From: an uncultured Fidelibacterota bacterium
GTDB taxonomy: Bacteria; Fidelibacterota; Marinisomatia; Marinisomatales; UBA8229
NCBI GenBank assembly: GCA_913041945.1
Contig: CAJWIT010000004.1
Location: 568 to 64,567 of the forward strand
Direction: 5' to 3'
DNA length: 64,000 nt
The notes under the pieces were generated by a model. It did not search any database and was not told the DNA's origin. It worked only from the letters and a program-made list of their open reading frames with translations. How positions within the stretch are numbered: the first letter of the stretch is position 1; every line of letters starts with the position of its first letter. The translations under genes were made by a program, and so were the position numbers. Below are positions 12,746 through 40,319 of this stretch, piece by piece.

Positions 12746-15700
12746 CTAATATCCAAGATGAGGTGCCAGCCACTTTTCAACAGCTTTGACTTTCATTCCT
12801 TTTCTCCTGGCATAATCTGTCACTTGCCCCCGGCTTATCCGCCCAAGGCCAAAATAAGTGGAGTCCGGATGAGAAAAATACCACCCGCTTACTGAAGCAG
12901 CGGGGATCATTGCATAGTTCTCTGTCAAAGTAATTCCCGTATGCCTTTCCACATCTAATAAATCCCACAAATTTGATTTTTCAGTATGATCCGGGCAGGA
13001 AGGATATCCCGGCGCAGGTCGAATTCCCCTGTATTTTTCACGAATCAAACTTTCATTGTCCATTACCTCATCCTTGGCGTATCCCCAAAATTCTTTCCGT
13101 ACACGCTCATGCATCCGCTCTGCAAATGCTTCAGCAAACCTGTCTGCCAGAGCTTTAAGAAGAATTTTTTTGTAATCATCCTCATCTTTTTCAAACCTTT
13201 TTGAGAGAGTATCTACTCCATATCCAACGGTCACTGAAAAGGCTCCAATCCAATCCTTAAGTCCGGATTCCTCCGGCGCAACATAATCAGCCAAACAGCG
13301 ATTGGGTTGTCCGTGAGATTTAGATATTTGCTGCCGAAGATGGTGAATCACACTTCCCTCCTGTTGTCTCCCCTCATCTCTAAAAATACGAATATCATCT
13401 CCAACACCCACCGCTGGGAAAAATCCAATCACCCCTTTTGCTGTGAGGAGGTTATCAGACACAATCTGTTTAAGGAGCTTCAAAGCATCTTCATAAAGCA
13501 CCTCTGCCTGGTGACCCACTTTTTCATCTTTCAAAATTTTAGGATATTTCCCCTTCAATTCCCATACGGTAAAAAAGGGAGTCCAGTCAAAATAATTTGT
13601 TAATTCATCCAAATCATAATTGTCAAAAACACGAATTCCATTCAATTCGGGTTCAGGAGGTATATAATTTTTCCAGTCAGGGCAGAACTTCCTTTCCCTT
13701 GCCTCAGACAGAGAAATCAAGTTACGCGCATTCCTGCTTTTCTCATGCATCCTCCGAATTTGGGAATATTCCTTACTTATCCCAGAAATAAATTCTTCCT
13801 TTTGTTTTTCATTCAGCAAGGATTGAACCGTACCTACGCTTCGGGAAGCATCCGCTACATGGACTGTGGGACCTGAATACTGCTGTGAAATTTTCACAGC
13901 GGTGTGTTTTTTCGAGGTTGTAGCTCCTCCAATAAGAAGGGGTATGGAAAGATTTTCCCTTTCCAATTCTCCCGCCATATAAATCATTTCTTCCAATGAA
14001 GGAGTAATCAACCCGCTGAGACCGATAATATCTACTTCATTATCTCTTGCAGTATTGATAATTTTATCCGGTGGAACCATGACTCCCAAATCAATAACTT
14101 TATACCCGTTGCATCCCAGAATGACTCCTACAATATTTTTCCCAATATCGTGCACATCCCCTTTCACTGTTGCCATTAAGATTTTTTTCTGTGATTTTTT
14201 CTTCCCGGATTGTTCCTTGTCGATAAAAGGGACAAGATACGCTACAGCTTTTTTCATAACCCTTGCACTTTTTACAACCTGAGGAAGAAACATTTTTCCT
14301 GCCCCAAAGAGATCGCCTACACGATTCATTCCATCCATAAGCGGACCTTCAATAACTTCAATTGGGTACCTGAACATTTTTCGCGCTTCCTCAATATCTT
14401 CCACAATAAAATCCGTAACTCCTTCCACTAGAGCATGTTCAATTCTTTTCTCAACAGCGCTCGTTCTCCAAGCGTTATCTTGAGTTGATTTTTGTTCAAC
14501 CTTCTTGAACGATTTCGCTATTTCTAATAAACGTTCGATAGCATCATCCCTACGATTAAAAAGAACATCCTCTACCCGTTGAAGGATGTCCGGACTGAGG
14601 TCATCATACACTGCTAATTGGCCAGCATTGATAATCCCCATATCCATCCCTGCCTGGATGGCGTGATAAAGAAATACAGAATGCATCGCTTCTCGGACAG
14701 CATTATTCCCTCGAAATGAAAAGGACAAATTACTCACTCCCCCGCTGATGTGAACACCGGGGCAGGAATTCCTAATCTGCCTGGTAGCTTCTATATAGTT
14801 AATGGCATATTCATTGTGTGCTTCGATTCCTGTGGCAACAGCAAAAATATTCGGGTCAAAAATAATATCTTCCGGGGAAAAACCTGTTGTTTCGGTAAGA
14901 AGTGTATACGCCCGCTGACAAATAGACACTTTCCGTTCTATCGTATCTGCCTGACCTTCCTCATCTAATGCCATTACAATGACAGCAGCGCCATAACGCA
15001 AAATCTTTTTGGCTTGTTCCAGAAATTTTTCTTCTCCTTCTTTTAAGCTGATGGAATTCACTACACCCTTGCCCTGGATATTCTTCAATCCGGTCTCAAT
15101 AACAGACCATTTTGAGGAATCAATTACAATCGGTATCCTGCTGATATCAGGTTCAGAAGCAATCAAACGAAGAAATTTTTCCATAGCTATTTCAGATTCC
15201 AAAAGACCTTCATCCATATTCACATCAATCAGCTGGGCACCGTTTTCAATCTGTTGACGGGCAACAGATAAAGCTTCCTCATACCGGTCTTCCTTAATCA
15301 GCCGACGAAAACGAGCCGATCCGGAAACATTGGTTCGTTCACCAATATTCACAAAATTTGAATCAGACCGAATTGTAAATGGTTCAAGTCCACTTAACCG
15401 TGTGAATGGGGCTATTTCCGGAATTTTTCGTGGAGAAAGATCACTTACAGCATCAGCAATAGCTGATATATGATCTGGTATGGTCCCACAGCAACCACCC
15501 ACAATATTCAATAGGCCCTCTTCTGCAAATTCCCTGATGAGACCTGCCATAAATTCCGGACTGTCATTGTATTCTCCAAATTCATCGGGAAGCCCCGCAT
15601 TGGGATGGACAGATACTAAGGTGTCCGCTATTCGTGAAATATCTTGAAGATGAGGACGAATCTGTTGAGCACCCAAAGCACAATTCAAACCTACACTTAA

Positions 15701-16408
15701 CAGATTCCCGTGGCGAATAGAAATCCAGAATGCCTCTGGAGTCTGTCCAGAAAGCGTTCTCCCACTGGCATCGGTAATGGTCCCGGAAACTAAAACGGGA
15801 ATTGGCTTGCGGGATTCTTCAATGATTTCCTGGACAGCTGCCAAAGCAGCTTTACAGTTGAGAGTATCAAAAACGGTCTCCACCATCAATAAATCCACAC
15901 CACCCTCAAGAAGAGCTTCAGCCTGTTCATGGTAGGCGGAAAATAACTCATCAAAAGTAATATTGCGAAAACCCGGATCATTTACATCCGGAGAAAGGGA
16001 AGCTGTCCGATTTGTGGGGCCTAAAACACCACAGACAAACCTTGGTTTTTCCGGTTCCTTTTTAGAGAATTTATCGGCCACCTGGCGACCAATTCGGGCT
16101 GCAGCAAGATTTATATCCCTCACAGCTTCTTCCATCCGATAATCACTTTGAGATATTCTGTTCCCATTAAATGTATTGGTCTCAATGATATCTGCACCTG
16201 CTTCAAAATATGCTCTGTGAATACCTTCAATGACTTCTGGACATGTTAACGATAATAAATCATGGTTTCCTTTCAAATCCACCGAGTGGTTTTGAAATAG
16301 ATCTCCTCTGTAATCCTCTTCTCCAAGAGAATGATTTTGAATCATCGTTCCCATGGCGCCATCCAGAATGACAATTCGCTGTTTCAGTATTTCTCGTAAC
16401 TTTTCCAT
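12746..16408 (-). CDS. metH: Cobalamin-dependent methionine synthase
   Basis: All modules are recognisable: Hcy-binding ([17 protein letters not shown]), pterin-binding, B12-binding ([11 protein letters not shown]) and the AdoMet activation domain. I place the start at ATG 16408 ([21 protein letters not shown]). The track's extra 26 codons begin at a TTG and read through a terminator hairpin. Confidence 0.95.
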
Positions 16409-16437
16409 AATAAAAAAGCCGGCACTTGTCCGGCTTT
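16409..16437 (-). terminator. Intrinsic-terminator-type hairpin 3 nt upstream of the metH ATG (candidate attenuator or expression platform)
   Basis: Minus strand AAAGCCGG-acaagtg-CCGGCTTT followed by TTTATT then ATG. The stem is 8 bp (5 GC pairs) and runs into a 6-T run. Confidence 0.55.
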
Positions 16438-16497
16438 GGTACACCTTTTTAGCACCTTTATTTATAGTCGCTGCAATATGGTTCAAATCACGACTAG

Positions 16498-16526
16498 TAT
16501 ATATTAGGACATTTACTCTTTTACAA
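16498..16526 (-). promoter_or_regulatory. Candidate sigma70-type promoter for metH
   Basis: Minus strand TTGTAA (16521-16526), a 17-nt spacer, then TATATA (16498-16503). It would give a leader of about 80 nt ending in the attenuator hairpin. Confidence 0.3.
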
Positions 16527-17153: not shown

Positions 17154-18065
17154 TTACGATCCGTGGGGATGTGCTTGTTGATAAACTTTTTTCATTTTTT
17201 CCGGTTGAATATGGGTATAAATCTGTGTGCTTGAGAGGCTGCTGTGTCCCAATAATTCCTGCACAGCCCGGATATCTGCCCCTCGAGATAAGAGGTGGGT
17301 AGCAAATGAGTGCCTCAAGGTATGAGGTCCGAATCGTTCACCATCTGCTACCGTTTTCAAATACATTTTGATTCGTCTTTGTACAGTTCGAGGTGAAATT
17401 CGTTTTCCTTTTGAATTTATAAATAATGGCACAATGTCTTCTTTCTCAGATAATTGAATTCCACGAAATTCAAGGAATTTTTCTATAGAAAATTGGGCAC
17501 GTTTTCCATAAGGAATCAACCTTTCTTTGCCTCCTTTTCCGGTTACTTTTATTAATTGACTTTCGGTATGAAAATCATCCAGATTGATATTCACCAGTTC
17601 TCGAAGGCGCATTCCTGTGCTGTAAAAGAGTTCCAGCATCGCCCTGTCCCGCAATCCGATAAAGGAATCGCTGGCGGGCGCATCCATCAGTTTTTCTACC
17701 ATATCCTCGTTCACATAAACCGGAAGTGATTTTGGTGTTTTCGGTGTTTTTATATGAATGACAGGATTATCCTGAATTTCTTCAATCTTCAGTAAATATT
17801 TAAAAAAGGATTTTACAGATGCAAGGCGACGCGCTACTGTCTTGCTGGAATATCCCTCTTCAAACTCCTTTCCCAGAAAATGGCGAATTGCTATTTTATC
17901 CACATCACCAAAATCTGAAACTGGTGTACCAGAATATTCCTCGAAAAACTCAACAAACCGGTACAAGTCATATCCATAAGCATTTATGGTAAATTTCGAG
18001 TAATGGCGCTCTTTCTCTAGATAAGTAAGAAAATCAGAGATGATATCTTTGGTAAAGTCAGACAT
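17154..18065 (-). CDS. Tyrosine site-specific recombinase, XerC/XerD type
   Basis: 303 aa with an N-terminal SAM-like domain and catalytic HTLRHSFATHLL...LGHSSLSSTQIYTH. Housekeeping context; overlaps the rluD stop by 8 nt. Confidence 0.85.
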   Translation of the reverse strand: MSDFTKDIISDFLTYLEKERHYSKFTINAYGYDLYRFVEFFEEYSGTPVSDFGDVDKIAIRHFLGKEFEEGYSSKTVARRLASVKSFFKYLLKIEEIQDNPVIHIKTPKTPKSLPVYVNEDMVEKLMDAPASDSFIGLRDRAMLELFYSTGMRLRELVNINLDDFHTESQLIKVTGKGGKERLIPYGKRAQFSIEKFLEFRGIQLSEKEDIVPLFINSKGKRISPRTVQRRIKMYLKTVADGERFGPHTLRHSFATHLLSRGADIRAVQELLGHSSLSSTQIYTHIQPEKMKKVYQQAHPHGS

Positions 18066-35692: not shown

Positions 35693-37843
35693 GTGAAACA
35701 AACACTACCCAAACCCTTCATCCTTGTACTGGCATTATTCATTGCTTGCTCATCGGATGCCGGATCGAAGCCAAGCGTAGAACATTCAGATAAACACATG
35801 AACAGACTTTCCCAAGAATCCAGTCCGTATTTACTACAGCATGCTAATAATCCTGTAGATTGGTATCCCTGGGGCGAAGAAGCTTTTCAGGAAGCAAGAA
35901 AACGTGACAAACCAATCTTCCTTTCCATCGGATATTCCACCTGCCACTGGTGCCATGTGATGGAACACGAATCCTTTGAGGATGAAGAAGTGGCGCAACT
36001 CATGAACGATAATTTTATTTGTATTAAAGTTGACCGGGAAGAGCTGCCAGAGATTGATCATGTTTATATGTCAGTATGCCAGGCAATGACAGGACGAGGC
36101 GGCTGGCCCCTGACAATTGTCATGACACCCAATAAAGAACCATTTTTTGCTGGAACCTATTTTCCGAAAACCGGCCAAGGAAACCGACGGGGCATGATAC
36201 AATTATTACCAATGTTGGCTGATGCCTGGAAAAACCGAAAGCTAGAGCTTTCAGATAGTATTAATAGAATAAAACAATACCTTAGACAAACCAATTCAAA
36301 AACTGAGGGAGAATCATTAACCCCTGAAATACTCACCAAAACTTATAGTGAGTTTACAAACACATTTGATTCAGATAAGGGCGGGTTTGGAAGAGCACCA
36401 AAATTTCCTTCGCCCCATAACCTTCTTTTTCTTCTGCGCTACCATCACATGACGAAATCCAGGGAAGCGTTAAATATGGTGGAAACAACACTCCAAAATA
36501 TGAGAAAGGGAGGAATCTGGGATCACATCGGCTTTGGTTTTCATCGGTACTCCACTGATAAAAACTGGCTTCTCCCTCACTTTGAAAAAATGCTTTATGA
36601 CCAGGCAATGATCTCGATGGCCTACCTGGAAGCTTTTCAGATAACGGGCAACGAAGACTATGGAAGAACAGTTAGGGAAATCTACACCTACGTGCTCAGG
36701 GATATGACCAGTCCTGAAGGGGGCTTTTATTCTGCTGAAGATGCGGATAGCGATGGAGAAGAAGGAAAATTTTATCTATGGACAACTGATGAAGTCCAAT
36801 CCATATTGGGAAAAAAAGAAGGTGAACAGTTTAATGCTTTATTAAATATCAAGCCTGGAGGAAATTTTCGCGATCAAGCCAGTAGGCAGGAGTCAGAACA
36901 TAATATTCCACATATAACCACTCTGATTGAAGAAAATGATCTGAATTTTATGGAAAAACACAGAAAAACGCTTTTCGAAGTGAGGGAGAAACGGATTCAT
37001 CCGCTTAAAGATGACAAGATACTCACAGACTGGAATGGGCTTATGATCGCATCCCTTGCCAAAGGATCTGTTGCCTTGAATGCACCTGAATTTTATGACG
37101 CTGCCCGAAGGGGGGCCGACTTCATTCTAAAAAATCTCCGGTCAAAAGATGGACGCTTGTTGAAACGTTATCGCCAGGGGAAAGCGGGCCTTCAGGCTCA
37201 CCTGGATGATTATGTGTTCGTCATTTGGGGGCTGCTTGAACTGTACGAAGCCGGATTCGAGGAAGTGTATCTTCAGGAAGCGCTAAACCTGTCAAATATT
37301 TTAGTAAATAATTTCTGGGACGAAGCAAACGGTGGGTTCTTTTTGGGAAGTAAAAATGCTGAAAAACTCATCGCCCGCGCAAAAACAGGATATGACGGAG
37401 CAATCCCTTCCGGGAATTCCATTTCCGTTGGCCTTTTACACCGGTTGGCACGGATTACAGGAGACATGAAATGGGCTGGAATGGCAAATACAATTTTGAA
37501 AATATTTTCAAAAGATATTGAAAGATCGCCTAGAGGATTTTCAGCGATGTTGCTGGGCTATATCTTCGAAACAGATTCCCCAAAAGAAGTGGTCATTGTA
37601 GGAAATTCTAACCAGGAGGAATCCATGGTATTTCTTACTTCTGTTAATTCAAACTATGAACCGAATAAAATCATTCTTTTCAAAGATATGTCAAATAAAA
37701 ATTCAGTTCTTTCCACCCTTGCTCCATGGACAGAATCCCAGACAACTATAGATGGAAAAGCGACAGCATATATTTGTGAAAATTTTACCTGTAATCTGCC
37801 CACCACCGATCTTTCTATAACAATGGACTTTATCAAAAATTGA
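35693..37843 (+). CDS. Thioredoxin-domain protein of the YyaL/DUF255 (SPATA20-like) family with a six-hairpin glycosidase-like C-terminal domain
   Basis: 716 aa with a GTG start. [52 protein letters not shown] is diagnostic. The N-terminal signal has ...LFIAC. Confidence 0.9.
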
Positions 37844-37872
37844 TTGACATTCAATTCGTTAACCTGTATTTC
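37844..37872 (+). promoter_or_regulatory. Candidate promoter at the start of the cassette-like region
   Basis: Perfect -35 TTGACA (37844-37849), a 17-nt spacer, then TATTTC (37867-37872, a poor -10). It overlaps the GTTAACC core-like site. Confidence 0.2.
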
Positions 37873-37877
37873 AATTT

Positions 37878-38009
37878 ATGAAGTATCGTCATAAAGAACA
37901 GCCAATACAAACCGTTTATAGTATAGTTGCAAACTCAAAAATGAGCCAAGAACAACAAAAACTAATTGGTTCAATTGTAACTCCTGAATTAACACAAGGT
38001 AAAGAATGA
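37878..38009 (+). CDS. Hypothetical 43-aa ORF (first cassette-like unit)
   Basis: My own translation gives MKYRHKEQPIQTVYSIVANSKMSQEQQKLIGSIVTPELTQGKE*. There is no clear Shine-Dalgarno. It is supported only by its position 5 nt upstream of the first attC-like element. Confidence 0.2.
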   Translation: MKYRHKEQPIQTVYSIVANSKMSQEQQKLIGSIVTPELTQGKE

Positions 38010-38014
38010 TAAAT

Positions 38015-38106
38015 GCTTTCTAACCCCCACTCCACCGGACACGCAAACGTATCCGACAAAAACCGAACGGGACGTGGAATGCCGGTGAGTTTATTTGTTA
38101 GAAAGC
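38015..38106 (+). repeat. attC-like imperfect inverted repeat A (92 bp)
   Basis: GCTTTCTAAC (38015-38024) pairs perfectly with GTTAGAAAGC (38097-38106). An unpaired spacer follows (4 nt CCCC against 6 nt TTATTT). The inner helix ACTC(C)ACCGG/CCGGTGAGT has a bulged C at 38033. The centre is 43 nt and variable. Confidence 0.6.
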
Positions 38107-38122
38107 CTAAAAAGGAGCGAGT

Positions 38123-38710
38123 ATGATAGAAATTAGGTGTTTAAAATGCGGGACGATTCAAGAAGTTGAACCGCCACAACCAAAGGACATTTGCATTAAT
38201 TGTGGTCATAATTTATCAAAAGGTAGTTGGATGAGAGTTTCGGGTTTCGGTGAAACAGAATCCATAGTTGAGAAACTAATATTTACCTATGGTGGTTTTT
38301 GGAAAAGGTTTGCCACTTATGTTCTTGATAGCGTCCTACTACAATTTGTTATTTACATATTAGCGCTTGTTTTTGGATTCAAGTTTTTCCTAACTGAAGG
38401 GGGTTTAGGAGAATTAACTGCAATGTGGGTTATACTTTCTATTTTACTACCGTGGATTTATTTTGCGGCAATGGAAAGTTCTGATACCCGAGCAACTGTA
38501 GGAAAATTAGCATTAGGTATTATTGTCTCTGATTTACATGGTAAACAGATTACATTTGGTAGAGCATCTGGTAGATATTTTGGGAAAATAATTTCTGGAA
38601 TTATTTTAGGGGTTGGATTTATTATGGCTGGGTTCACTGACAAAAAGCAATCCTTACATGATATTATTAGTGACTGTTTGGTTATTGATAAAAAGCATAA
38701 AAATGAATAG
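38123..38710 (+). CDS. RDD-family membrane protein with an N-terminal zinc-ribbon
   Basis: 195 aa with CLKCGT...CINCGH (a CxxC pair) and RDD-family features: FWKRFATYVLDSVLL, RATVGKLALGIIV, SGRYFGKIIS, SLHDIISDCLVI. A strong Shine-Dalgarno AAGGAG lies 6 nt upstream. Confidence 0.85.
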   Translation: MIEIRCLKCGTIQEVEPPQPKDICINCGHNLSKGSWMRVSGFGETESIVEKLIFTYGGFWKRFATYVLDSVLLQFVIYILALVFGFKFFLTEGGLGELTAMWVILSILLPWIYFAAMESSDTRATVGKLALGIIVSDLHGKQITFGRASGRYFGKIISGIILGVGFIMAGFTDKKQSLHDIISDCLVIDKKHKNE

Positions 38711-38774
38711 GCTTTCTAACCCGCACTCCACCGGATTCACAGCTAACGCCGGCCAGTGAGTTTATTCGTTAAAC
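38711..38774 (+). repeat. attC-like imperfect inverted repeat B (64 bp)
   Basis: It begins 1 nt after the RDD stop. Its first 25 nt (GCTTTCTAACCCGCACTCCACCGGA) match element A at 24/25 positions. It shares the 4x6 spacer geometry and the bulged C (38729). The 3' end is GTGAGTTTATTCGTTAAAC, where GTTAAAC fits GTTRRRY. The centre is shorter and unrelated to A. Confidence 0.6.
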
Positions 38775-39012
38775 TAATAAGGTATTCCTAGTTTGAAAAA
38801 GCCGGAGAAATACGTAATTTCATCCAGGCTTATTGACAATTCCTGTTCCAGGATCTGTTAATTCAGGATCTTCAGTATCAAAATCTTGGAAGCTGTACTC
38901 CGAATGCAAAAAACGGGCCTTTCCGCAAACTGGCGGATGAAGGAAGTTTGCTGTATTTGGGAGGCATCCCAACATGTAAATAGCGGTCCTGAATAACTAC
39001 CTGAAACAGGTT

Positions 39013-39049
39013 AAGAAAGCCCTCCAAAACTAGAGGGCTTTCTTTTTAC
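39013..39049 (+). terminator. Intrinsic terminator (strong on the plus strand; also downstream of convergent hflX)
   Basis: AAGAAAGCCCTC-caaaacta-GAGGGCTTTCTT followed by TTTAC. 12-bp stem. Confidence 0.7.
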
Positions 39050-39053
39050 TGGC

Positions 39054-40319
39054 TCATTTTTCTGTGGAAAGAAGAATCCGGTTTATCCGCTGAGGGGACC
39101 CGCGGATCTTTAGCCGAACACCATCATCATCATACGACCGTTCCAAAACTTCAACCCCTTCCTGGGCAATAGCAAGTTCCCTCCCCTGATCAAATGGAAA
39201 AAATACATTTACAGTTTGAGCACTTTCATCCATGACCGTGGTAATATTTTTCATCAACTGATCAATCCGGAGATGGTTAAGTGCGGATACCAGTATTCCA
39301 TCCGGAAAAATTCGTTTCAGGTAAGCTATCCTGGCACTTCCATGAATCAAATCAATTTTATTAAGAACTAACAGGGTCTGGTGCTTGTCTGCTTTGAGTT
39401 CCTTTAAAACAGTTCGTATTGTTTCCAAGTGTTCCATAACCTGTTGTGAGGATGCATCCAATACAATCAGAATCAGGTCCCCTTCTATAACTTCTTTGAG
39501 AGTGCTCCGAAAACTAGCCACCAGATGATGAGGAAGTTTACGGATAAATCCAACTGTATCGCTTAAAAGAAAACTATGGGTACCCTTAAATGAAACAGAT
39601 CGGATTGTTGTATCTAAAGTGGCAAATAATTGATCTTGAATATAAATTTTCTCACCTGTAAGCGCCTGCATAAGTGTTGATTTTCCTGCATTTGTATATC
39701 CAACTATGGCAACCTTAAACTGATCTTTCCGCCGTTTTCCCTGGGTAACCCGTTCCCGGTCTATCCGATTTAGTTCCTTTTTCAACTTTCCAATCCGTTG
39801 CCGAATGAGTCTTCGGTCTACTTCGATTTGTGTTTCACCAGCACCGGCACGGGCACCAATCCCGCCCATCTGGCGCTCCAGATGCGTCCACATCCGGGTG
39901 AGACGAGGAAGAATATATTGAAGGTGAGCTAATTCCACCTGTGTTTTGGCTTCCTTGGTTTTTGCATGTTTCCTAAATATATCCAGGATCAGAGCGCTTC
40001 TGTCAATAACCTTCAGATTATCAGAGAGCCCTTGGAAATTTTTTGTCTGTGCCGGATTCAAATCCTCATCAAAAATGAGTAAATCTGCATCTAATTCTTT
40101 AGCCTGGCGAACGATTTGTTCAGCCTTCCCTTTCCCAATGAAAAAAGTAGGGTTAATCTTTAGTAGCCTCTGGGTGACTCTCCCTACAATTTCCGCACCT
40201 GCTGTTTCAGAGAGAAGTTCCAACTCATCTAAATGTTCATTAACAGATTGTTCATCGACCCTGCCGTGAATTGCTCCGATTAAAATTGCCTTTTCCAATT
40301 TTTCTGCTTCAAAAGACAC
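39054..40319 (-). CDS. hflX: GTPase HflX
   Basis: 421 aa with the HflX N-terminal domain (ELEELSETAGAEIVG...), G1 GYTNAGKST, DTVGF and NKID. Confidence 0.92.
   Translation of the reverse strand: MSFEAEKLEKAILIGAIHGRVDEQSVNEHLDELELLSETAGAEIVGRVTQRLLKINPTFFIGKGKAEQIVRQAKELDADLLIFDEDLNPAQTKNFQGLSDNLKVIDRSALILDIFRKHAKTKEAKTQVELAHLQYILPRLTRMWTHLERQMGGIGARAGAGETQIEVDRRLIRQRIGKLKKELNRIDRERVTQGKRRKDQFKVAIVGYTNAGKSTLMQALTGEKIYIQDQLFATLDTTIRSVSFKGTHSFLLSDTVGFIRKLPHHLVASFRSTLKEVIEGDLILIVLDASSQQVMEHLETIRTVLKELKADKHQTLLVLNKIDLIHGSARIAYLKRIFPDGILVSALNHLRIDQLMKNITTVMDESAQTVNVFFPFDQGRELAIAQEGVEVLERSYDDDGVRLKIRGSPQRINRILLSTEK

Follow-up and report, generated by a model that had tools for sequence, protein, structure and literature searches.

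The locus downstream of yyaL in the window, the 64-kb stretch of marine Marinimicrobia (SAR406) chromosome analysed here, is very probably an integrase-less array of gene cassettes. It consists of a truncated cassette, made up of a 43-aa ORF and attC A, and an intact 671-bp cassette that carries an RDD/zinc-ribbon gene and attC B. The earlier interpretation of this DNA as a small cassette array is supported, with amendments to its first cassette, to the inner helix of attC B and to the way in which the array came to lie between yyaL and hflX.

An array counts as a CALIN if it has two or more attC sites within 4 kb and lacks intI (Cury et al. 2016, PMC4889954), and two cassettes is the commonest CALIN size (Loot et al. 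2023, bioRxiv 10.1101/2022.09.11.507474). attC A and attC B lie 605 nt apart on the plus strand, without IntI in the 64 kb. The locus is an ordinary small CALIN that is fixed in the population and has displaced a transporter gene. Like other CALINs or SALINs, it is small, has at least two same-strand attC sites within 4 kb and no integrase nearby, and keeps cassettes of unknown function behind a resident gene that is able to supply transcription. Unlike them, it has an uncultured marine Marinimicrobia host, its first cassette is truncated, a core symporter gene was displaced, and the known polymorphism is a repeat-mediated hybrid with no clean excision.

The attC pair could be recognised by a reader from the raw sequence alone. 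It anchors an attC family and its integrase in Marinimicrobia (SAR406), an abundant uncultured phylum of the ocean; a full-text search found no integron literature on Marinimicrobia. Exact-protein look-ups placed the locus on numerous marine contigs from Tara and JGI. Among named genomes the nearest, with ~97% nucleotide identity, is that of a Candidatus Neomarinimicrobiota MAG (L016), in agreement with the non-proteobacterial lineage proposed in the initial annotation.

Architecture of attC A and attC B

attC A occupies positions 38015–38106 of the plus strand (92 nt) and was identified by reading the sequence, by its fold and by covariance models R1 and R3. attC B, at 38711–38774 of the same strand (64 nt), was identified by reading and by model R3. 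When read directly, attC A has the order GCTTTCTAAC / CCCC / ACTCCACCGG / 43-nt centre / CCGGTGAGT / TTATTT / GTTAGAAAGC. R'' lies within 38015–24, followed by the spacer (38025–28), L'' (38029–38, with a bulged C at 38033), the centre (38039–81), L' (38082–90), the second spacer (38091–96) and R' (38097–38103). attC B has the order GCTTTCTAAC / CCGC / ACTCCACCGG / 18-nt centre / CCAGTGAGT / TTATTC / GTTAAAC, with R'' within 38711–20, the spacer at 38721–24, L'' at 38725–34, the centre at 38735–52, L' at 38753–61, the second spacer at 38762–67 and R' at 38768–74. The 5' and 3' arms are common to both sites and the centres are unrelated.

The stop codon of the 43-aa ORF (38009) is separated from the start of attC A by 5 nt, and attC B begins with no gap after the RDD stop codon (38710). 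Each site is therefore located behind an ORF of its own strand, and both have one orientation. The arm motifs were found at these two places only in the 64-kb window, in that single orientation. In our direct reading of 37500–39100, the coordinates of both elements, their ends and their distances from the stop codons were as first described.

All parts of the attC layout were present in both elements: R'', spacer, L'' with one additional base, centre, L', spacer and R'. The cores of attC A, TTCTAAC and GTTAGAA, each match 6 of the 7 positions of the consensus sequences (RYYYAAC and GTTRRRY) and form a helix of 10 bp. The cores of attC B are TTCTAAC and GTTAAAC, and its R' matches the consensus at 7 of 7 positions. 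The spacers are asymmetric, as in attC sites, with 4 nt (CCCC or CCGC) opposite 6 nt (TTATTT or TTATTC); in canonical sites they are 5 nt opposite 5–6 nt. In the inner helix, ACTC(C)ACCGG pairs with CCGGTGAGT, and the extra base is on the 5' arm of the top strand. The initial annotation gave both elements the same inner helix. The architecture and the bulge are indeed shared, but attC B differs from attC A by a C-A mismatch (CCAG instead of CCGG). The lengths of 92 and 64 nt fall within the range of attC sites (~57–141 bp, with a variable terminal structure).

The fold of attC A has a z score of −3.6 on the top strand and −3.3 on the bottom strand. In its array context attC B folds weakly, with z scores of −0.7 (top) and −1.8 (bottom). 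When the junction of the circular cassette was restored, the bottom strand of attC B folded at −12.7 kcal/mol with a z score of −3.1, forming an R helix of 11 bp, an internal loop of 6:4 and an L helix from which a single G bulges out. This bulged G is the extrahelical base that had been predicted for the bottom strand. Rfam gave no match on attC A or attC B at gathering or permissive thresholds; Rfam has no attC family. No tRNA or tmRNA was found.

The attC family and its integrases

We scanned one genome per species (596 Gb) with a 19-base pattern of the 5' arm, for which we estimate that about 4 chance matches are expected. The scan returned 15 loci, mostly in Neomarinimicrobiota MAGs. One of them, L004, looks like a chance match. 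In nearly all of the others, a centre of 20–110 nt is followed by the same 3' arm, ...CCGGTGAGTTTATTCG(TT), and the sequence identity of the family members ends at G|TT. The members are about 60 to 141 nt long. A long form of ~135–140 nt is conserved and was found repeatedly across several MAGs. When 19 members were aligned, TAAC and GTTA were nearly invariant and the L helix was 95% paired, with compensatory changes at 3 pairs.

Model R3 was built from elements of other contigs only, leaving out attC A, attC B and the homologous loci L016 and L032. It gave 60.3 bits (E 3.4e-13) on attC A and 49.7 bits (E 1.8e-10) on attC B, and its next-best match in the window was 11 bits (E 1.4). Model R1 gave 67 bits on attC A. 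Judged by these scores, the match of both sites to the family exceeds chance, and attC A and attC B are, as far as sequence and predicted structure can tell, members of an attC family of Marinimicrobia chromosomal integrons. With the family covariance models, same-strand arrays of elements, each behind an ORF, were found in L005, L011, L017, L026 and L042. Cassette genes in the related arrays include restriction-modification, GmrSD, Mrr-like and helicase genes. Such defence-type genes are in keeping with the idea that chromosomal integrons store genes for defence and accessory functions.

Integrase genes or their remnants lie beside arrays of the family. In L042, L040 and L047, a full-length intI is divergent from an array of family elements, and its product scores 434–441 bits on TIGR02249 (cutoff 265). 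IntI of the L042 type has 318–320 aa, matches TIGR02249 over the whole model and is 48% identical to IntI1. A second IntI type, of 331 aa, is encoded in L009 just upstream of a family cassette and in the same orientation; it was called by its 49% identity over the full length of the L042 IntI and not by a TIGR02249 score. Truncated intI remnants adjoin family arrays in L017, L020 and L026, and L007 has a remnant too. The remnant in L017 is a 95-aa ORF divergent from the array, which matches the first 81 positions of TIGR02249 (E 6e-24). The close homologues of this remnant in the protein database are short without exception (57–163 aa) and differ in their internal deletions. A metagenome scan seeded with the N-termini of the remnants returned full-length IntI genes that are 80–87% identical to the remnant. 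The candidate of pepA beside intI as a conserved platform locus found no support.

In the 64-kb window, tblastn with the L042 IntI found no intI or fragment of it. The sole match was an ORF at 17154–18065, 20 kb from the array, which is of the XerC/D type (334 bits on the XerC model and 134 bits on the IntI model, cutoff 265). The absence of IntI from the window, noted before, was borne out.

Compared with sedentary chromosomal integrons such as the Vibrio cholerae superintegron with its VCRs, the related Marinimicrobia arrays are similar in having a highly conserved long attC of ~135–140 nt and many cassettes of unknown or defence type, with intI alongside. They differ in that the sites belong to another sequence family, the IntI has only 48% identity to IntI1, as above, and many platforms have an internally deleted intI. 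Unlike the homogeneous VCRs, the sites in the window are short variants (92 and 64 nt) that combine the arms of the family with unrelated centres.

Compared with class 1 attC sites of the aadA1/aadA7 type (60 nt), the window sites have the same R''-spacer-L''(+1 base)-loop-L'-spacer-R' layout and the same G|TT crossover. The bulged base is 8 nt after the AAC of R'', as in the aadA1, dfrA17, VIM-2 and aac(6')-Ib sites. In contrast, the 5' spacer has 4 nt (5 in class 1), the L helix has 4+5 bp (3+5 in class 1), there is no sequence similarity beyond TAAC/GTTA, and the covariance models of either group recognise the other only weakly. When run on four class-1 plasmid arrays, the family model ranked the attC sites of aadA1, aac(6')-IIa and aadA5 1st, 2nd and 4th, in register, with weak E values of 0.15–2.3. 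Proxy model R2, made from nine class-1 attC sites whose centres were replaced by GAAA, was too insensitive to weigh either way: it missed attC A and attC B, found three short-form family members only and, across nine integron loci from other phyla, detected a single site. Full-length class-1 attC sites aligned by plain MAFFT were structurally inconsistent, and this alignment was discarded.

Crossover points and the two cassettes

We infer that crossover takes place between G38097 and T38098 in attC A and between G38768 and T38769 in attC B. If crossover is at G|TT, as the initial annotation proposed, the bases after GTT belong to the next cassette and pair with the R'' flank of that cassette. 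We measured the complementary run between the bases after GTT and the 5' flank of the next element. It had a mean of 7.2 nt and reached at least 7 nt in 11 of 14 adjacent pairs. In 494 non-adjacent control pairs the mean was 1.15 nt and 1.2% reached 7 nt; against the element's own flanks the mean was 1.3 nt. The pair in the window is complementary at 10 of 10 positions, TTAGAAAGCC (38098–38107) being the exact complement of GGCTTTCTAA (38710–38719).

L009 and L013 share a segment of 818 nt with 100% identity and unrelated flanks. The segment is limited by G|TTAGACCACTTG... (G|TTAGACC...) on one side and by ...TTATTCG|TT on the other, and from these limits it is read as one cassette in two contexts. 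The boundary statistics and this cassette settle the orientation, with the plus strand as the top strand, as was first suggested. The reverse orientation, with a crossover in the 5' arm and antisense genes, was prompted by the hybrid site in L016 described below. The asymmetric structure of the sites, their orientation with respect to intI and the boundary statistics for G|TT spoke against it, and it was rejected.

Cassette 2 extends from 38098 to 38768 on the plus strand (671 bp) and contains TTAGAAAGCC, a ribosome-binding site, the RDD gene and attC B as far as its final G. The proposal that it can circularise agrees with the 10-nt complementarity and with the 11-bp R helix that was restored on folding. 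From what is established for integrons, each site would fold as its bottom (minus) strand into an R helix, a 6:4 spacer and an L helix with an extrahelical G. IntI supplied in trans would bind the folded bottom strand and cleave between A and C of 5'-AAC-3', which corresponds to G|TT on the top strand (38097|38098 and 38768|38769). The RDD cassette would then leave as a circle and regenerate the 11-bp R helix. The circle junction would read ...GAGTTTATTCG|TTAGAAAGCCTAAAAAGG, i.e. TTATTCG|TTAGAAAGCC, and the canonical excision product would be attC A ...TTATTTG|TTAAACTAATAAGG, i.e. attC A followed by TTAAACTAAT.

The RDD gene (38123–38710, plus strand) encodes a 195-aa membrane protein with an N-terminal CxxC...CxxC and an RDD domain (Pfam RDD, E 1.3e-24). 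An AGGAG ribosome-binding site is 6 nt upstream. Only two close relatives were found in the protein collection, and the next ones have at most 56% identity. A homologue that is 88% identical is located within the cassette array of L011, with a dN/dS of 0.11 at a dS of 0.62. By this measure purifying selection keeps RDD, and the gene appears to behave as a functional accessory cassette gene.

Cassette 1 is different. Its content is the 43-aa ORF (37878–38009, plus strand), which has no Pfam match. The start that the 5' flank of attC A predicts for the cassette (GTTAGAAAGCATT) was absent upstream, the left junction (37877|37878) is not G|TT, and the ORF has 2 non-synonymous and 0 synonymous changes compared with L016. 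For these reasons cassette 1 is probably a truncated remnant, and its ORF is probably not a functional gene. A GTTAAC at 37859–37864 was considered as the start of cassette 1 and rejected, since homology to the relatives with an SDF symporter gene runs through to 37877 and no model match is found there. Of the two cassettes originally proposed, the RDD cassette is thus intact, but the cassette of the 43-aa ORF is truncated on its 5' side and probably contains no gene.

The locus in relatives and its history

The junction between yyaL and hflX, whose comparison among related genomes had been suggested, differs in content among L016, L032, L033 and L034. In L032 (HflX 89% identical), the order after yyaL is SDF symporter gene, long-form attC and G|TTAAACTAATAAG; attC B has the same downstream flank, TTAAACTAATAAG. 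In L034 (HflX 72% identical), SDF adjoins hflX, with no attC and no intI. L033 (HflX 93% identical) has only a 5' remnant of SDF and a degenerate 3' attC arm, and was rejected as an empty site because both are still there. In L016 the 43-aa ORF is followed by a hybrid site, which has the 5' arm of attC A and the centre and 3' arm of attC B, and RDD is missing. Cassette 2 minus one repeat is absent from both L016 and L033.

To the left, homology of the window to L032 and L033 ends at 37877|37878. To the right, it begins again within the 3' arm of attC B (38753 in the comparison with L032, 38757 in that with L033) and continues through TTAAACTAATAAG. The restart within attC B is explained by the conservation of the 3' arm in the family. 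By these alignments, the block 37878–38768 replaces the ancestral SDF symporter gene. The array does sit between yyaL and hflX as described before, but it is no simple insertion, since the SDF gene was replaced.

IntI is known to insert cassettes at places other than att sites as well (Loot et al. 2023, bioRxiv 10.1101/2022.09.11.507474). Insertion by IntI behind SDF, at an attC already resident there or at a secondary site, is the most likely way in which the cassettes arrived. We infer the following order of events. An attC would have been acquired behind SDF. Canonical cassette insertion there would have left RDD-attC B next to TTAAAC. SDF, the first attC and the 5' portion of cassette 1 would then have been lost through an illegitimate, non-site-specific deletion. 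Finally, in the L016 lineage, a 696-bp deletion would have occurred between the 25-nt 5' arms of attC A and attC B. The hybrid site of L016, the one natural variant without the RDD unit, fits such a repeat-mediated deletion and not canonical IntI excision, since the latter would leave attC A followed by TTAAAC.

At present the array is fixed in an oceanic population of high abundance. Among the 23–24 contigs read per protein (of 187–309 blocks listed) with an identical RDD, HflX or 43-aa ORF, no alternative arrangement was found. The same arrangement in every contig read gives no sign of ongoing shuffling at this locus. It is therefore a real possibility, although not the one we favour, that attC A and attC B derive from an integron and are now immobile relics on which no integrase acts any more, all variation at the locus coming from slippage or homologous recombination between the 25-nt arms. 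The L016 hybrid is the outcome expected of direct-repeat recombination and not of IntI, and attC B, whose L helix contains a C-A mismatch, forms a weak R helix in situ. On the other hand, full-length IntI genes of the cognate type are present in the same environment and phylum-level lineage, the R helix of attC B returns to 11 bp in the circular form, and both sites retain every conserved position of the family.

We consider it unlikely that a complete integron once sat here and decayed with loss of intI and attI, leaving the locus as its tail, instead of cassettes having been inserted in trans at a non-integron site. Integron decay is common in these lineages, where truncated intI genes are the rule, and cassette 1 is truncated on its 5' side, where the platform would have been. 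However, the flanking yyaL, SSF, hflX and small ORF are conserved core genes in relatives with and without attC. The more distant L034 has SDF beside hflX and neither attC nor intI, L032 has a single attC directly behind the core SDF gene, and the tblastn search of the window met XerC/D only.

The reading of both elements as REP/BIME-like, MITE-like or terminator-like palindromic repeats behind genes is effectively refuted: attC A does have, close behind a stop codon, a terminal inverted repeat that is nearly perfect over 10 bp, and no attC family exists in Rfam that could speak against such a reading, but there are only two copies in 64 kb, in one orientation and with no flanking duplication at either element; attC B has no terminal inverted repeat in situ and yet matches the sequence with which its own cassette starts; arrays of family members, all in one orientation, lie beside IntI genes; boundary complementarity ties each element to the next one (7.2 nt) and not to itself (1.3 nt); and no T-tract follows attC A (…GTTAGAAAGCCTAAAAAGG) or attC B (…GTTAAACTAATAAGG), neither of which was called by the terminator scan.

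The 43-aa ORF is linked to centre A in the window and to centre B in L016, where the RDD unit is lost. This raises the rather improbable idea that exchange within the conserved R''/L'' 5' arm may re-pair genes and attC centres in nature. If true, it would be a route for swapping attC sites between genes. If it were integrase-mediated (e.g. at TCTAA|C on the top strand, and not by RecA or slippage), it would represent a second, non-canonical crossover point of cassettes.

Under the favoured reading as an integrase-less array, the cassettes end at attC B and a fixed flank follows. A conserved 51-aa ORF (38820–38975, minus strand) is convergent with the array and lies outside the cassettes. It has 84–96% amino acid identity in L016, L032 and L033, and L034 has ~69% nucleotide identity over the region. 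Further downstream, at 39015–39047, a GC-rich hairpin of 10 bp (GAAAGCCCTC/GAGGGCTTTC) is followed by TTTTT on the plus strand. The consensus terminator scan did not list it, and no promoter stands out at the locus. The hairpin is likely a shared terminator, used by read-through from yyaL and the cassettes and, on the opposite strand, by hflX. The array would then probably be transcribed by read-through from yyaL up to this hairpin.

Sequences bordering the array

Directly past the yyaL stop codon, the window carries ATTCGTTAAC (37853-37866), which resembles the family 3' arm ATTCGTTA. This motif is possibly what remains of an R' box. It is kept in L016 and L033, two relatives with the corresponding yyaL-hflX locus, and a near-identical AATCGTTAAAC occupies a third, L032. 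Positions 37853-37866 gave no match to the family covariance model.

On the other side, the minus strand carries a 51-aa ORF (38820-38975), flanked by the array and the hflX terminator. The same three relatives keep it at 84-96% amino acid identity, and nucleotide identity over this region is ~69% in a fourth, L034. When compared with L033, its dN/dS is ~0.54. The ORF had no family match; it may be a real small gene.

An apparent variant of the RDD cassette gene

The same locus was found in a contig from another sample (L121, 5001-5588), which differs from the window at 13 nucleotides across 990 nt. All 13 fall within codons 79-119 of the RDD gene; the 43-aa ORF, the attC sites and the spacers are the same as in the window. 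The amino acid is altered in 9 of the 12 affected codons, and the residues hit are conserved in the RDD homologue of another array (L011). The patch probably stems from a local error of assembly or sequencing, or possibly it is hypervariable.

Cassettes and integrases of related arrays

Three contigs with family arrays (L005, 159-5332; L017, 117-4306; L026, 2516-9634) carry mostly defence-type cassettes. These include a DNA methyltransferase with a restriction-like ORF or RE_EcoO109I, GmrSD, a 957-aa SF1 helicase, a NucS-like nuclease and an Mrr-like protein, the last assigned from its own sequence without an NCBIfam match. The L026 array is interrupted by an inserted IS110.

The majority of intI genes close to the family are internally deleted stubs of 57-163 aa with differing deletion end-points. 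They were found in L017 (5934-6221), in its short database homologues P0001-P0017, and in the array contigs L020 and L026. P0001 and P0002 are 78% identical and have a common 95-aa architecture, the N-terminal domain plus the last 10 residues, which suggests an old deletion with the ORF still open. Contig L009 (5597-7587) encodes a second IntI type of 331 aa, 49% identical to the full-length L042 type. This IntI and its first cassette are co-oriented, not divergent.

The first L009 cassette is also 100% identical over 818 nt to a cassette of contig L013 (3763-4580), and the two contexts differ. Contig L003 (1-498), assigned by binning to a Woesearchaeota archaeon, matches the Neomarinimicrobiota contig L014 (1-505) at 97% identity along ~500 nt, a family attC included. 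This reflects either mis-binning or cross-domain cassette sharing, the latter of which has been reported (PMC9668308).

A riboswitch match elsewhere in the window

The sole Rfam match reaching the gathering score in the whole window was a SAM-II (SAM_alpha) riboswitch on the minus strand at 16428-16504 (39 bits; cutoff 36). The annotated TTG start of a 1246-aa ORF (12746-16486) falls within the matched stretch. The SAM-II family is described for Alphaproteobacteria, whereas the host here belongs to Marinimicrobia.
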